NCBI GenBank assembly: GCA_035531115.1
Contig: DATKTP010000204.1
Span: 4,155-68,154, forward strand
Reading direction: 5' to 3'
From: Candidatus Deferrimicrobium sp.
GTDB lineage: Archaea > Asgardarchaeota > Lokiarchaeia > Helarchaeales > HEL-GB-A
Length of the DNA stretch: 64,000 nucleotides
A program made the translations under genes and the position numbers. Positions 3,798 through 26,830 of the stretch are shown here, one piece after another. Position 1 is the stretch's first letter. Each line of letters opens with the position of its first letter. Below the pieces are notes generated by a model. It saw only the letters and a list, made by a program, of their open reading frames with translations. It had not been told where the DNA came from and ran no database searches.

Positions 3798-4901
3798 TTA
3801 TATATCTTTAATTAATTTTAAATAGGATATCGATATTCTTGTTTTGTTTTGAGCGGCAGCAAGGATTTTTTGATTATCTAAAGCAGAGATTTGAAATTCA
3901 TTCTGAATGAGGTTAGCGAGATTGACGATTAAAACTTGATAGGAGCAATTAATTCCGAAATTCATTGAAATAATATGCTGTAAGGTCTTTGTTTCTGCGA
4001 ATGTAAATGCTACTGCCGTTTTTTTTGTGATTGTCTTCACTTCAATGAGTTGAATCGTCTTTAAATATTCACAGTTAATTTGATAATCAATAATTATTTG
4101 ATTGAACCTGCCATCAGAATTATCACTAAGAATATATGGAATTGCTTGAGATAGCGGAAGCATTTCTCCATTAATATCTATATGTGAAACATGAGAACCG
4201 GGGGGTAGGAAATGAAAATAATCGGTAACCTTTTCTTGTTCATCAACAGTAAGGTCGCGTTCATTCTTTAGCGTTGGCTTATATTCTTCCACTAACGGGC
4301 TAATTTCATCCCATTGACTCATATTCTCATTTTCAGATTGGTTTTCACCAATTTTCATTCTTTCTAAAAAAATCTTCTGCAATTTTCGAAGCAAAACGGG
4401 ACAATTTACATCAATACAATGTTGTGGGATCGCAGGATACGATTTTAGTTGGGCTCGAATGTTTTCGGGTGGATTACAAAAGAAACTAAGAAGGTCAAAA
4501 GATATATCGGCACCTGTTCCCGGTGGTCGACTTTTTAGTAGATTCTCGGAGTAACTGTTATCTTCTTGTGGAATTTCAACTCCGTCCTTTCCCACTAGGA
4601 AATATTGCCCCCGCCGCCATACCATCCTATATTCTGGATTAAATTCAACTCTATCCTTTCTTACTGCCAAACTAAGAGATTGTAATGAATGGATTACTTG
4701 ATATGGAATTAGAAGAGCGTGTGGACGTCCGTAATACACTTTTACAAGTGTGGCACTCCAGGGAATTAGAAAGCCTACTTCATTTACCTTTTCACTGAAT
4801 TCTTGAGAGAGATAGCGATATGCTATAAATTCTCCAAGATCGCCTATTAGTCCTGATGGTATTTTGAAATTGAACTTTACTGTGATTCTATTCCGCTCCA
4901 T
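3798..4901 (-). CDS. hypothetical protein with weak PD-(D/E)xK-nuclease-like elements
   Basis: 367 aa. N-terminal 'GDLGEFIAYRYL' and C-terminal 'IQLIEVKT' resemble the helix-1 Glu and E-x-K elements of restriction-endonuclease-fold proteins. The match is weak. Confidence 0.55.
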   Translation of the reverse strand: MERNRITVKFNFKIPSGLIGDLGEFIAYRYLSQEFSEKVNEVGFLIPWSATLVKVYYGRPHALLIPYQVIHSLQSLSLAVRKDRVEFNPEYRMVWRRGQYFLVGKDGVEIPQEDNSYSENLLKSRPPGTGADISFDLLSFFCNPPENIRAQLKSYPAIPQHCIDVNCPVLLRKLQKIFLERMKIGENQSENENMSQWDEISPLVEEYKPTLKNERDLTVDEQEKVTDYFHFLPPGSHVSHIDINGEMLPLSQAIPYILSDNSDGRFNQIIIDYQINCEYLKTIQLIEVKTITKKTAVAFTFAETKTLQHIISMNFGINCSYQVLIVNLANLIQNEFQISALDNQKILAAAQNKTRISISYLKLIKDI

Positions 4902-21799: not shown

Positions 21800-21877
21800 G
21801 GTCCAGTGGCTTAGCTTGGTTAAAGCGCTCGGCTGATAACCGAGAGATCGTGGGTCCGAATCCCACTTGGACCACCA
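21800..21877 (+). tRNA. tRNA-Ile (anticodon GAT) with encoded CCA
   Basis: Manual cloverleaf. Acceptor GGTCCAG/TTGGACC, D arm GCTT-AGCTTGGTTA-AAGC, anticodon arm CTCGG-CTGATAA-CCGAG, T arm GTGGG-TCCGAAT-CCCAC, discriminator A, then CCA. The T loop reads TCC rather than the usual TTC. Confidence 0.9.
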
Positions 21878-21885
21878 TCCTACTT

Positions 21886-22620
21886 TTAAAAAATTGGGGA
21901 TTCTTGCGGTGGATAATATAAAATTCGTCCTTCTCCTGCTAATTGTTCCCAAAGTTGTTCTGCTTTTACATATGATTCTTTTTCCAACTTATCTTCGATT
22001 CCTGAGATAACCGCTCTGATTTTTTTTCTTTCCAATTGATCTTTTCTTCGCATAAGGAGAGCTCGTTCAAAAAAGGGCTTCTGGACCTTATCATTCTCGT
22101 CGATCCCGACAATACCCATTCGTTTATGATAGTTTATACATTCTTCATAGAGTTTTTTATTTTCGACTGATTCGCTGCGTTCTTCCATCCAATGATATAT
22201 ATATCGTGAAATAGTAATCGAATCAAGAGTAGTGTCGTCCGAAGACCCCCACAATTGATTCAAATATCCCTCCAATTGCTTCCCTATCTCATCAAGTTCC
22301 TTATTATGGTAAATAACAAAAGTAGACGCGGTATTCAGGACTGAAAAGGTCTCAAGGAGATCCCAAAACGTCAGTTTCACAATTTTCGAGGGTTCTTTCT
22401 TGTTTTCCTCTGCTTCATCTTCAAGTATAATAGAAAATTCAAAGGGCATAACAATAATTGCTTTCTCAAAATACCGATACTTAAAAAACGGTTCTGCTAT
22501 ATAGATTAAGTTACCATCCGTTTCATCTAGTGTGGGGATAAAATGAATAAATTTATTTTTCAAGTTCTCAAACACCATTATTTTAGGATTTTCCGTTCTA
22601 ATTCGAAAGCTTGATCCCAT
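21886..22620 (-). CDS. hypothetical protein, overlaps and follows the TGT-like gene
   Basis: 244-aa ORF. Its start overlaps the last 43 nt of the upstream TGT-like gene. No recognisable motifs. Confidence 0.6.
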   Translation of the reverse strand: MGSSFRIRTENPKIMVFENLKNKFIHFIPTLDETDGNLIYIAEPFFKYRYFEKAIIVMPFEFSIILEDEAEENKKEPSKIVKLTFWDLLETFSVLNTASTFVIYHNKELDEIGKQLEGYLNQLWGSSDDTTLDSITISRYIYHWMEERSESVENKKLYEECINYHKRMGIVGIDENDKVQKPFFERALLMRRKDQLERKKIRAVISGIEDKLEKESYVKAEQLWEQLAGEGRILYYPPQESPIF

Positions 22621-23576
22621 GTTTTTCGATAATATTTAGAATCCAATTGATTAATCTCATTTTCAATAGTTTGAGCTAACTCCTCCCTATTCTTGCACCC
22701 TTGTATGGCTTTTACCTTCTCTTGCCAAATTGCCAAGTTATGCTTCACCCGCGCAAGCCGATTCGCGTTAAACTCTTCAATGATATTTCCCTCGTAAGTT
22801 CTACAAAACTCACAGGTGCACTTCCACTCTTTCAAATCTCTCACTTTCAATCCCTTTCCAGTAGGTGTATAGATCGTACCCCGCGCGAGCGCGGAAGAAA
22901 CCGGCGTACTTCCATCAACCGAAGTCGCTCCTAAGTACGCAATAATTGGAAGCAAATATAAACTCGAAAGCCCCGAGAGATGGAAGGGTAGATCCTCCAA
23001 GACGCTCCTTGCTCCAATTGTCAGCTCAAAAATTGTTTGCAAGCCTTTTTTCCGGATCTTAGTATCCCGTAAAAACTCAGCGACGCCGCGACAGAAACAT
23101 TCATGCCCTATATCCCGAGCTTTACGAAACCAAACCCGGGCTTCCTCTGTTGTGGAAACTTCTAAAGAACTATAAATGGGGACCTCGACCGTTTTATGCT
23201 CTATCGCCCAGTTCGCATTATCTAGACATTGTTGGATGGCCCGCTCCCTGACTTCTTTCGCGATATTCCAGTATTCATAATTCGTCAAACTCGCAGGGGT
23301 GTTTAGGGACATAAACCCCACCGTTTTCTTAGGTGTATAAAATTTCTCCTGATTTTCTAACACAATTGCCGGCGTTCGCTTCGTGGGATCAATATTCCAC
23401 CAATTTCCTGAATGGATAAAGTGAGTTCCTTTATACTCCTTAAGTAATTTAATATTTTTCGGGTTACACTTTTCATACCCCATTACGATTGGCATCTCTG
23501 AATCTAAATTAGGAACAAATGTTACAAAAAAAGTGAAATTCATTGTTAAACACTCTTTTCTTTTCTTCAAATTCAT
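22578..23576 (-). CDS. tRNA-guanine-transglycosylase-fold protein (TGT/DpdA-like)
   Basis: 332 aa. 'PFHLSGLSSLYLLPIIAYLGATSVDGSTPVSSALARG' matches the TGT 'hLfGvG...GvDxFD...Ptr.ar.G' core including the catalytic-Asp position. Zn site 'CTCEFC...VKHNL' (CxCxxC...H). The start may be the second Met at 23543. Confidence 0.7.
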   Translation of the reverse strand: MNLKKRKECLTMNFTFFVTFVPNLDSEMPIVMGYEKCNPKNIKLLKEYKGTHFIHSGNWWNIDPTKRTPAIVLENQEKFYTPKKTVGFMSLNTPASLTNYEYWNIAKEVRERAIQQCLDNANWAIEHKTVEVPIYSSLEVSTTEEARVWFRKARDIGHECFCRGVAEFLRDTKIRKKGLQTIFELTIGARSVLEDLPFHLSGLSSLYLLPIIAYLGATSVDGSTPVSSALARGTIYTPTGKGLKVRDLKEWKCTCEFCRTYEGNIIEEFNANRLARVKHNLAIWQEKVKAIQGCKNREELAQTIENEINQLDSKYYRKTWDQAFELERKILK

Positions 23577-23699: not shown

Positions 23700-23815
23700 A
23701 GCGGGATAGGGTAGCCAGGAGATCCCACGGGGCTCATATTTTAGAGATACCCCGAGATCGGTGGTTCAAAAGATTGTTAGATGTCCTAACAATTCTGAGC
23801 GTCCACCTCCCGCTA
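23700..23815 (+). tRNA. initiator-type tRNA-Met (anticodon CAT) interrupted by two introns
   Basis: Acceptor AGCGGGA/TCCCGCT with A1:U72. Anticodon stem CGGGG/CCCCG (three G:C at 29-31:39-41). Anticodon CAT at 23735-23737. About 10 nt extra after position 37 (~23739-23748). About 31 nt extra inside the T loop (~23771-23801) containing the hairpin ATTGTTAG/CTAACAAT. 116 nt minus 41 nt gives a 75-nt cloverleaf. Confidence 0.8.
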
Positions 23816-23878: not shown

Positions 23879-24421
23879 ATGCGCTATAATATTTCTAATC
23901 CACGATGGAAAGCGGCTCCTGTTAAACTCTACGTTTATCATGCGAACCAATGTGATCCGAAGAAATGTACTGCCAAAAAATTGGAGAGACATGGATTCGT
24001 AAAAATGATAAAATTGAACCAAATCCCTCAGGGAGCGATCATTTTAAACCCTTTTGCAATGCGCGCCATCTCATCCGAGGATCACGATCAAGTTCTTGAG
24101 AAAGGGATTGTTGGAATTGATTGCTCTTGGCATAAGATTGAAGAGATGCAAACCGTCTTTAAATCCAAAGGAATAAGCAGATCACTTCCCTACTTAATTG
24201 CCAGTAACCCTATTAATTATGGAGTTCCCACTCAATTAAGTACGGTTGAAGCCTTTGCGGCTACGCTATTCATTACGGGATTTGCAGACTATGCCAAAAC
24301 AGTTGTATCTATTTTTAAATGGGGGGCTCATTTCCTTCAATTGAATGCAGACCCCTTGCAAGAATACGCGCAAGCTAAAAATAGTCAAGAGATTGTGGAA
24401 ATTCAAAAAGAATATATTTAA
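23879..24421 (+). CDS. tsr3: Tsr3-type SSU rRNA aminocarboxypropyltransferase (DUF367)
   Basis: 180 aa. N-terminal 'LYVYHANQCDPKKCTAKKLERHG' plus 'GIDCSW' and 'LPYLIASNPINYG', characteristic of Tsr3. Confidence 0.85.
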   Translation: MRYNISNPRWKAAPVKLYVYHANQCDPKKCTAKKLERHGFVKMIKLNQIPQGAIILNPFAMRAISSEDHDQVLEKGIVGIDCSWHKIEEMQTVFKSKGISRSLPYLIASNPINYGVPTQLSTVEAFAATLFITGFADYAKTVVSIFKWGAHFLQLNADPLQEYAQAKNSQEIVEIQKEYI

Positions 24422-26047: not shown

Positions 26048-26425
26048 TTACATTTGCCTTAAAATTTCAATTACACGCTTCTCATACTGAATAAGTTGAA
26101 GTGCAACTAATCCATGATTTCTTATATTTTTTTCAATGGCAATCGTCAGGACGTAGTATTTTTTATCGAAAACAAAACGATATAGGAAGATATTCATTTC
26201 TTGTAAATAATAACACGATCCCGTTAATTTTGGGAGTCTTTTATAGATATCTAGAACATAAATTGCCAATACCCCAAATTCATCTTCATGTAATTTGAAT
26301 TTAGAATAGATTGGAAGACCTTCTGAATCATAGAGTGCCCAGCCACTGAGTATAACATTTGCATTTCTACAAATATCTTCAACGACAAGTCCTCCTCGAC
26401 CTTCTATAATAGATTGCACTTCCAC
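26048..26425 (-). CDS. Roadblock/LC7 (MglB-like) domain protein; start re-assigned to GTG 26425
   Basis: 'GRGGLVVEDICRNANVILSGWALYDSEGLPIYS...FGVLAIYVLDIY...YYVLTIAIE' fits a ~125-aa roadblock pattern. GTG at 26425 is preceded by GGGGGAAAG. The track start (26524) would overlap the RNase P RNA 3' region. Confidence 0.55.
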   Translation of the reverse strand: MEVQSIIEGRGGLVVEDICRNANVILSGWALYDSEGLPIYSKFKLHEDEFGVLAIYVLDIYKRLPKLTGSCYYLQEMNIFLYRFVFDKKYYVLTIAIEKNIRNHGLVALQLIQYEKRVIEILRQM

Positions 26426-26451
26426 CTTTCCCCCATATAAAGGAGATCGGT

Positions 26452-26830
26452 GATCTGGTATGAGTAGAGTAGGCCCTTTTCTGTTCTGGAATTTCAATTG
26501 CTTGAGATTCCTTGACGGTATCAATCTATGCGCCCTACCCGGTCCTCGGCTAGGCTCCTCATTGGACGCTATTTGGGCTTGCTCCCACGACCTTGAGCTG
26601 TTTCAACGATTCCATGCATCTCTTCGGCGGGTTAGCTCATCCAATATCGCTAAAGGACTTCTCGAATTGCTTCTCAGCCGCCTCATCATCATCTAATGCA
26701 TGGGCGTGTCATTTCTGATCTCAGAGAAAGACTCTCGCCTTGTGGCTATAGCCACGCCGTTGCCTAGGAGGGAGAAGGGACCTTCCTCAGACGACCTTCG
26801 TCCGGCAACCGTCCTTACTCTTACCAGATC
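26452..26830 (-). ncRNA. rnpB: RNase P RNA (archaeal type A-like)
   Basis: GC-enriched block. The minus strand reads '...GTCTGAGGAAGGTCCCTTCTCC...' (CR-I GAGGAAAGUCC-like) and '...CCAGAACAGAAAAGGGCCTAC...' (CR-V ACAGAA plus the P4 3' strand, with a bulged U as in bacterial P4). The termini pair as a long P1: 5' GATCTGGTAAGAGTAAGG (26830-26813) with CTCTACTCATACCAGATC (26469-26452). Confidence 0.85.

Follow-up and report, generated by a model that had tools for sequence, protein, structure and literature searches.

What does a protein do that is built on the barrel of a tRNA-guanine transglycosylase (TGT) and has kept just one of the three aspartates by which TGTs work? This question is raised by two adjoining genes in a window of 64,000 nucleotides (the whole stretch analyzed; positions 4,155 to 68,154 of contig DATKTP010000204.1, assembly GCA_035531115.1) from an Asgard archaeon of the order Helarchaeales. 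The upstream gene encodes a TGT-superfamily protein, referred to here as the TGT-like protein and numbered throughout by its 321-aa form; the downstream gene encodes a protein that we refer to as the partner. An earlier note, made from the sequence alone, had read the first as a stand-alone enzyme, perhaps of the DpdA type that inserts 7-deazaguanine into DNA, and the second as its coupled companion. Here, we combine profile searches, structure prediction, phylogeny and comparative genomics to ask what kind of TGT-superfamily member this is, whether its active site could function, and what the partner adds.

Fold, clade and active site of the TGT-like protein

Based on sequence models, the TGT-like protein does not belong to any of the curated families: it scores 13.3 bits against the Pfam TGT model PF01702 (cut-off 26.3; E 0.044), 27.5 bits against the ArcTGT model TIGR00432 (cut-off 350; E 1e-6) and 12.1 bits against TIGR00449 (cut-off 47.6), a match to the ArcS model (E 6e-7) is also under the cut-off, and no score exceeds a curated cut-off for the Tgt, QTRT1 and ArcTGT families (PF01702, TIGR00430 and TIGR00432). 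All of these scores fall far below the cut-offs; what places the protein in the superfamily is its predicted fold, together with profile-profile comparison. In hhalign, the family aligns with its nearest outgroup (DpdA- and ArcTGT-like profiles) at a probability of 99.9%, and the family profile searched against the PDB matches DpdA (7ui4, E 1.9e-6) and ArcTGT (1iq8, E 1.4e-5). For the AlphaFold2 (AF2) model (pLDDT 94.4, pTM 0.92), Foldseek ranks ArcTGT 1iq8 first among PDB structures (E 2.4e-11, probability 1.00, TMq 0.69), with Tgt and QTRT1 next (E 1e-9); fold matches in BFVD to phage TGT/DpdA-like proteins are weaker than the match to ArcTGT. We are therefore confident in the predicted architecture, i.e., a TGT-fold (beta/alpha)8 TIM barrel that carries a zinc subdomain and is followed at the C terminus by a helical tail. 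The first barrel strand begins at residue 4, with about 40 residues before the third ("HSG") strand compared with about 95 in ArcTGT and Tgt, and the protein thus lacks the N-terminal beta lid. At the other end, it stops about 50 residues past the zinc site, and Pfam finds neither a PUA nor any other C-terminal domain. Fold, domain content and length all bear out the earlier description of a minimal stand-alone TGT-fold protein.

When 1.84 billion representatives were scanned in full with HMMER, only 17 proteins came out below E 1e-30, after which scores fall from 190 to 69 bits; the next matches past this gap are short ArcTGT-like and DpdA-like proteins. All 40 of the nearest outgroup proteins match the general TGT model, and 30 to 32 of them match DpdA models (30 in the case of PADLOC). 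The 46 homologues of the TGT-like protein all come from Asgard archaea; those with names belong to Helarchaeota, Lokiarchaeota/Promethearchaeota and Sigynarchaeum, and two bins carry the label Bathyarchaeota. In a maximum likelihood (ML) tree (IQ-TREE, LG+C20, 91 sequences), the family is monophyletic (support 99), has a long stem (1.06) and lies outside the clade formed by ArcTGT and Tgt (support 95). Its neighbor in this tree is a group that combines DpdA-like proteins with true DpdA (P0133 and P0137, which exceed the NF041059 cut-off), at an SH-aLRT (Shimodaira-Hasegawa-like approximate likelihood ratio test) value of 87; however, the approximately unbiased (AU) test did not reject a tree joining the family to ArcTGT (p-AU 0.18), and the placement beside the DpdA-like proteins is weak. 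Firm clustering with ArcTGT, which the earlier note had named as an outcome that would count against it, was not seen, even though the same AU test leaves a union with ArcTGT standing. Altogether, the TGT-like protein founds a small Asgard-restricted clade and is neither ArcTGT nor bacterial Tgt nor DpdA. The literature searched holds no description of this family.

The genomes that carry the family, or their close relatives, also have the familiar enzymes. Full-length ArcTGT of 531 to 543 aa, above the curated cut-off, is encoded in 6/6 of the other genomes of the window's order, while the window's own assembly, which is 82% complete, has no ArcTGT match. Bacterial-type Tgt is present in all seven genomes of the order, including the window's own (contig C151:5439-6521, i.e., locus L001 1489-2610, minus strand; 373 aa; TIGR00430 489 bits against a cut-off of 307); none of 14 Lokiarchaeia genomes tested had a Tgt above the cut-off. 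The occurrence of Tgt in all seven genomes suggests a queuosine-type modification of G34 in an archaeal order. Since ArcTGT and Tgt exist alongside it in the same genomes or order, the TGT-like gene is a third paralogue and not a replacement for ArcTGT.

The active site sets this paralogue apart. Three aspartates are invariant in the families of TGT and DpdA, and the D95A and D256A substitutions abolish DpdA activity (PMC10164549); the three have been described as being under "absolute conservation," with QTRTD1, a non-catalytic eukaryotic homologue, as the sole exception (PMC3074131). We aligned 32 family members with 40 outgroup proteins, four Asgard ArcTGT and four Asgard Tgt (MAFFT L-INS-i; 80 sequences). 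The nucleophile column holds Asp in 80/80 sequences (Asp210 here), and the hidden Markov model (HMM) alignments to 1iq8 and 7ui4 concur. By contrast, the general acid/base column has His (His44) in 32/32 family members versus Asp in all 48 other TGT/DpdA-like sequences, with hhalign aligning "fIHSGNWW" of the family with "DSGGf" of the outgroup, and the column that contacts the guanine edge has Asn (Asn81) in 32/32 versus Asp in 48/48. Three further columns differ just as consistently: the stacking residue is Ser (Ser190) in every family member versus Phe, Met or Leu in the others; the position after "SG" is Asn (Asn47) versus Gly, Ala or Ser and opens an invariant Asn47-Trp48-Trp49; and Gly211 is invariant versus Ser in the 48 others. 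The zinc ligands Cys242, Cys244, Cys247 and His268 are kept in 31 to 32 of the 32 family members and in 48/48 others. Of what the earlier note had claimed for this site, the CxCxxC...H zinc motif is there as described, and the conservation of the catalytic-Asp region holds for the nucleophile and fails for the other two aspartates.

As judged from the alignment, then, the family lacks the Asp triad that is the defining feature of every characterized catalytic TGT. Yet His44, Asn47, Asn81, Ser190, Asp210 and Gly211 are invariant across 32 sequences that reach down to about 32% identity, and we therefore read the His and Asn replacements as a constrained new pocket rather than decay. The substrate-binding residues are indeed changed, as the earlier note had allowed for in naming degeneracy as an outcome contrary to its proposal, but they are fixed within the family; a pocket altered and then held constant argues for a new specificity.

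Candidate activity and competing explanations

What is observed is the fold, the separate clade, the pattern of residues, the operon and how the family is distributed; from this, we infer catalysis, a polymeric substrate and a base specificity. Specifically, we give about an even chance to the TGT-like protein being a neofunctionalized, active ribosyl-transfer enzyme that works on a polynucleotide with a specificity other than for guanine. In this proposal, Asp210 would attack C1' of a nucleotide to give a covalent Asp210-ribose intermediate, His44 would serve as the proton shuttle in place of the general acid/base Asp, and the outcome of the N-ribosyl transfer would be base exchange or base excision. 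Asn81, whose side chain is a hydrogen-bond donor as well as an acceptor, would read an edge unlike the N1-H/N2-H2 edge of guanine or 7-deazaguanine, so that the target or the incoming base would be neither of these. An Asn at this position would suit an NH donor beside a carbonyl acceptor, as in a 2-oxo purine such as xanthine or in uracil or pseudouridine; replacing the equivalent aspartate of Escherichia coli TGT is said to shift specificity toward xanthine. A polynucleotide is proposed as substrate because the family is basic (median isoelectric point [pI] 8.9, net charge up to +22) and retains the zinc subdomain, and we consider RNA somewhat more likely than DNA. In Helarchaeales, the enzyme would work together with the coupled acidic partner, a candidate targeting factor, regulator or inhibitor.

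Three points weigh against this proposal. First, the family is patchy: among 251 Asgard species genomes sampled, five carry it (the window's own and four belonging to genus g5), and within the window's order it is found in four of the seven genomes; it is accessory and not core. Second, its gene contexts differ by lineage, with the partner in Helarchaeales, a RuBisCO-like protein (RLP) in Lokiarchaeia and other neighbors elsewhere. Third, the aligned residues indicate that two of the three catalytic or recognition aspartates are lost, as in a non-catalytic paralogue of the QTRT2 type.

This third point leads directly to the possibility that the TGT-like protein is a non-catalytic TGT paralogue similar to QTRT2/QTRTD1, serving ArcTGT, Tgt or the partner as a structural subunit or as one that binds RNA. 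Loss of two active-site aspartates with retention of the zinc site is the pattern given for QTRTD1 (PMC3074131), and carrier genomes do have an ArcTGT with which such a subunit could pair, and in Helarchaeales a Tgt as well. However, a nucleophile Asp and about 10 pocket residues that stay invariant at the divergence described above would be unusual for a dead site. Moreover, the presence of the family does not track Tgt (genus g5 has the family and no Tgt), most ArcTGT-bearing genomes lack the family, and the top ranks in Foldseek are taken by ArcTGT, Tgt and QTRT1. We consider a non-catalytic role unlikely.

In Lokiarchaeia, the gene neighborhood points elsewhere, to salvage of a small nucleoside or nucleotide (for example, of a sulfur-nucleoside or a 7-deazapurine) that feeds an RLP pathway. 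The TGT fold would then split off or swap the base of the free molecule. In Lokiarchaeia, no partner gene is found at the TGT-like loci; rather, the TGT-like gene always adjoins an RLP gene, as seen in six loci and three arrangements, divergent in one genus and co-directional in two other lineages, and the TGT-like proteins encoded there share no more than 38% identity. The RLP is form IV-like, with DK-MTP-1-P enolase as its best model (349 bits against a cut-off of 409). The distribution of QueC, which is lacking in 6/8 carriers versus 3/13 non-carriers, could be added in favor of salvage, but this contrast is confounded by phylogeny and assembly completeness. Against it, RLP is encoded in all 21 genomes tested, carriers and non-carriers alike, and an RLP neighbor was accordingly ruled out as a carrier-specific marker; genera g3 and g6 keep the RLP neighborhood without the TGT-like gene; the RLP of Helarchaeales lies on a separate contig (C227); and the basic charge and zinc subdomain of the family point to polynucleotides. 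On balance, salvage of a small molecule has, in our estimate, a small chance of being the function.

The explanation that the earlier note had put forward, a DpdA-like transglycosylase that inserts 7-deazaguanine into DNA (or RNA), we regard as improbable. In its favor, the best PDB match of the single TGT-like sequence is DpdA 7ui4 (E 0.024), as it is for the family profile; the protein is basic and lacks the N-terminal lid, as does DpdA; and DpdA and DpdA-like proteins are its neighbors in the ML tree, a grouping that is not robust given the AU test. However, the DpdA HMMs (NF041059/NCBIfam, PADLOC) do not match the TGT-like protein, PADLOC also has no match for the partner, and every member has His in place of D95 and Asn in place of D130, whereas the D95A substitution kills DpdA. 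Inspection of 19 loci revealed no dpdB, dpdC or restriction genes nearby, and a scan of viral contigs gave no relatives. The supply of preQ0, which the earlier note had suggested checking, does not speak for this function either: neither the window's own assembly (82% complete) nor any of the four g5 carrier genomes (90 to 100% complete) has QueC (QueD and QueE were not searched), and two other carrier genomes do have it. The TGT-like family does not follow QueC and is independent of endogenous preQ0 synthesis. The same four g5 genomes (G040, G129, G147 and G180) encode ArcTGT and an ArcS-like protein and no QueC, which implies that they salvage preQ0 rather than synthesize it.

Finally, it is extremely unlikely that the TGT-like protein is the catalytic half of a split ArcTGT whose C-terminal/PUA function is supplied by the partner: although ArcTGT is the top structural match and the incomplete assembly of the window lacks an ArcTGT match, the six other genomes of the order carry the full-length enzyme, the family falls outside the ArcTGT and Tgt clade, the partner has no PUA domain or fold match, and the Asp triad is not kept, in line with the earlier note's reading of a stand-alone enzyme.

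The partner gene and the surrounding locus

The two open reading frames (ORFs) that the earlier note described are present, one of 332 aa (22578..23576, minus strand) and one of 244 aa (21886..22620, minus strand) when each is read from its first ATG. For the TGT-like protein, 19 of 24 aligned homologues start at an internal Met ("MNFTFF", window position 23543), for which reason its length is probably 321 aa rather than 332 aa. Homologues of the partner mostly begin near Met15, which places a TAATG stop/start junction at 22578-22580 and leaves 1 nt common to both genes; the 43-nt overlap reported earlier applies solely to the partner's first ATG. Spacing of the two genes in homologous pairs ranges from -10 to +14 nt. 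Since the pair abuts under either start of the partner, the operon reading holds for both. Coordinates are collected in Table 1.

Table 1. Features of the TGT-like locus in the window and of related loci elsewhere
Feature	Position	Strand	Remarks
TGT-like gene (TGT-superfamily protein)	22578..23543	-	321 aa; 332 aa if ATG at 23576 is used
His44 codon, motif H-S-G-N-W-W	23412..23414	-	General acid/base Asp column (D95 in DpdA/ArcTGT, D102 in Z. mobilis Tgt)
Asn81 codon, motif L-N-T-P	23301..23303	-	Guanine N1/N2-binding Asp column (D130 in DpdA/ArcTGT, D156 in Tgt)
Asp210 codon, motif S-V-D-G-S-T-P	22914..22916	-	Nucleophile Asp (D249 in ArcTGT, D256 in DpdA, D280 in Tgt)
Zinc site C242-x-C244-x-x-C247 ... 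H268-N269	22740..22820	-	From alignment of the family and other TGTs
Partner gene	21886..22578	-	230 aa from Met15; 244 aa if ATG at 22620 is used
tRNA-Ile(GAT)	21800..21877	+	ARAGORN; Rfam 67.6 bits; 8 nt from partner stop codon, opposite strand
Initiator tRNA-Met(CAT), two introns	23700..23815	+	Manually spliced sequence called by ARAGORN; strand opposite to the pair
Tsr3-type small subunit rRNA aminocarboxypropyl transferase (Fer4_RLI + Ribo_biogen_C)	23879..24421	+	Pfam PF04034, E 4e-46; divergent from the pair
Nep1-partner operon	L054 496-2643; also L053, L055, L056, L057		Helarchaeales without the TGT-like gene
TGT-like gene + RLP	L037 6568-9050; L030 7001-9669; L045 2-2363		Lokiarchaeia

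The partner is an acidic protein (pI ~5) with 18 homologues, all from Helarchaeota. It has no match in Pfam or NCBIfam; its AF2 model (pLDDT 84.8) combines a helical bundle with a small beta domain and matches no fold in the PDB at E<1, and no relationship is detectable between the partner and the downstream genes of the Lokiarchaeial loci. In Helarchaeales, the TGT-like gene always lies in a tight operon with this acidic protein of ~230 aa. Because the partner directly follows the TGT-like gene in seven distinct loci that represent at least three different neighborhoods, the two genes move as a unit. The earlier idea of a translationally coupled, conserved partner with no assigned function is thereby supported. 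As to co-occurrence, which the earlier note had suggested testing, both genes are present in four genomes of the order and both are missing from G251. The remaining two, G240 and G253, depart from this pattern, with a partner homologue (34% identical) and no TGT-like gene.

In these two genomes, and on three more contigs (five contigs in all), the partner homologue is instead the last gene of a tight operon in which a gene for a 244-aa protein without assignment comes first and the gene for Nep1/EMG1 (PF03587, E 7e-55) second. The family profile of this head protein matched nothing in the PDB or Pfam, and the protein shows no similarity to the TGT-like family; its GIG...PDRHI stretch is similar to the HhH-GPD motif that an Ogg glycosylase carries (3fhg, E 0.31), a likeness not used as evidence. 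In the window, the pair is close to the gene for a Tsr3-type protein, and Tsr3 is found one to three genes from the pair in three other loci (L002, L033 and L061) and not near it in L058. We treat Tsr3 as genomic context of the pair, not as a demonstrated member of a module.

Nep1, an rRNA m1-pseudouridine methyltransferase, and Tsr3 modify the same nucleotide of the small subunit (SSU) rRNA, m1acp3-pseudouridine. The presence of the partner in Nep1 operons, together with the position of the pair beside Tsr3, prompted the more specific idea that the TGT-like protein and its partner may act on this rRNA site. Here, the ribosyl chemistry of Asp210 would be directed at a uracil-type base read by Asn81, and the protein would be a noncanonical pseudouridine-forming or base-exchanging enzyme on a fold that is not known to handle pyrimidines. 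This idea is a long shot: the Nep1 and Tsr3 links each amount to a single evolutionary event, and both were noticed after the fact.

Both tRNA genes that the earlier note placed on either side of the pair were found. The unspliced sequence of the initiator tRNA was missed by ARAGORN and by Rfam; it was called by ARAGORN as tRNA-Met(CAT) after removal of two inserts, one of 10 nt past position 37 and one of 31 nt within the T-loop, and the spliced form has A1:U72 and a G:C-rich anticodon stem. Farther along the window, the archaeal RNase P RNA lies at 26458-26824 on the minus strand (Rfam RF00373, 159.7 bits). The ORF at 26048-26524 runs with its 5' end into the 3' part of this RNA, so that its start is probably mis-set. 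In two of the homologous loci, toxin-antitoxin-type pairs of the HEPN/nucleotidyltransferase and PIN/DUF433 kinds lie a few kb from the TGT-like gene (L058 14060-14910 and L003 3940-5372); they are probably unrelated to it.

Comparison with known TGT-superfamily systems

To our knowledge, every characterized enzyme of the TGT superfamily, i.e., Tgt, QTRT1, ArcTGT and DpdA, swaps guanine for a 7-deazaguanine by means of the same Asp triad. If the activity that we favor is correct, the constrained Asp/His/Asn constellation would be the first evidence of a TGT fold retuned to another base or reaction, and the family could mark an RNA or DNA modification not yet described, or else an activity in repair or salvage, in the Asgard archaea, the prokaryotes most closely related to eukaryotes. 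Concrete handles for experiments are offered by the acidic partner, which is conserved, and by its linkage to Nep1 in other genomes.

Of the known systems, the catalytic domain of ArcTGT/TgtA (1iq8) is structurally the closest. It shares with the TGT-like protein the (beta/alpha)8 barrel, the zinc motif CxCxxCx20H, the nucleophile (D210 corresponding to D249) and an aromatic gate residue after the "SG" motif. In contrast, the TGT-like protein has neither the N-terminal beta lid nor the C1, C2 and PUA domains, its family has His for D95, Asn for D130 and Ser for the stacking Phe, its score against the ArcTGT model is a fraction of the cut-off, and a genuine ArcTGT exists alongside it in relatives.

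DpdA of Salmonella Montevideo (7ui4) and the short DpdA-like proteins of phages and archaeal viruses resemble the family in being basic, stand-alone barrels; DpdA has been reported to lack the N-terminal lid (PMC10164549). Further likenesses are the motif in which the nucleophile lies ("S-x-D-[SG]-[ST]-T-P"), the weak sister grouping and, in the longer members of the TGT-like family, an insertion that immediately precedes the zinc motif, at the position of Ins8 in DpdA. The family differs from DpdA in having no DpdA HMM match, in the replacement of D95 and D130, in the lack of a DpdB, DpdC, restriction or viral context and in its independence from QueC.

Compared by residue pattern, QTRT2/QTRTD1 is likewise a paralogue with the TGT fold in which the zinc domain is retained without the Asp triad, and it too exists alongside a catalytic TGT; unlike it, the TGT-like family keeps the nucleophile Asp within an invariant alternative pocket, and its distribution is not tied to Tgt. 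A parallel for the altered pocket comes from Asp143 of E. coli TGT, the equivalent Asp, mutation of which alters heterocyclic substrate specificity according to the title of Todorov and Garcia (2006) as listed in PMC3074131. In both cases, a change of the Asp at the guanine edge would alter the heterocycle that is accepted; however, the Asp143 mutants are engineered point changes in a tRNA enzyme, whereas the Asp-to-Asn change described here is natural, fixed in a clade and accompanied by further changes in the pocket. Against this background, the active-site constellation and the partner are what is new in the TGT-like family, while its fold and, probably, its chemistry are known.

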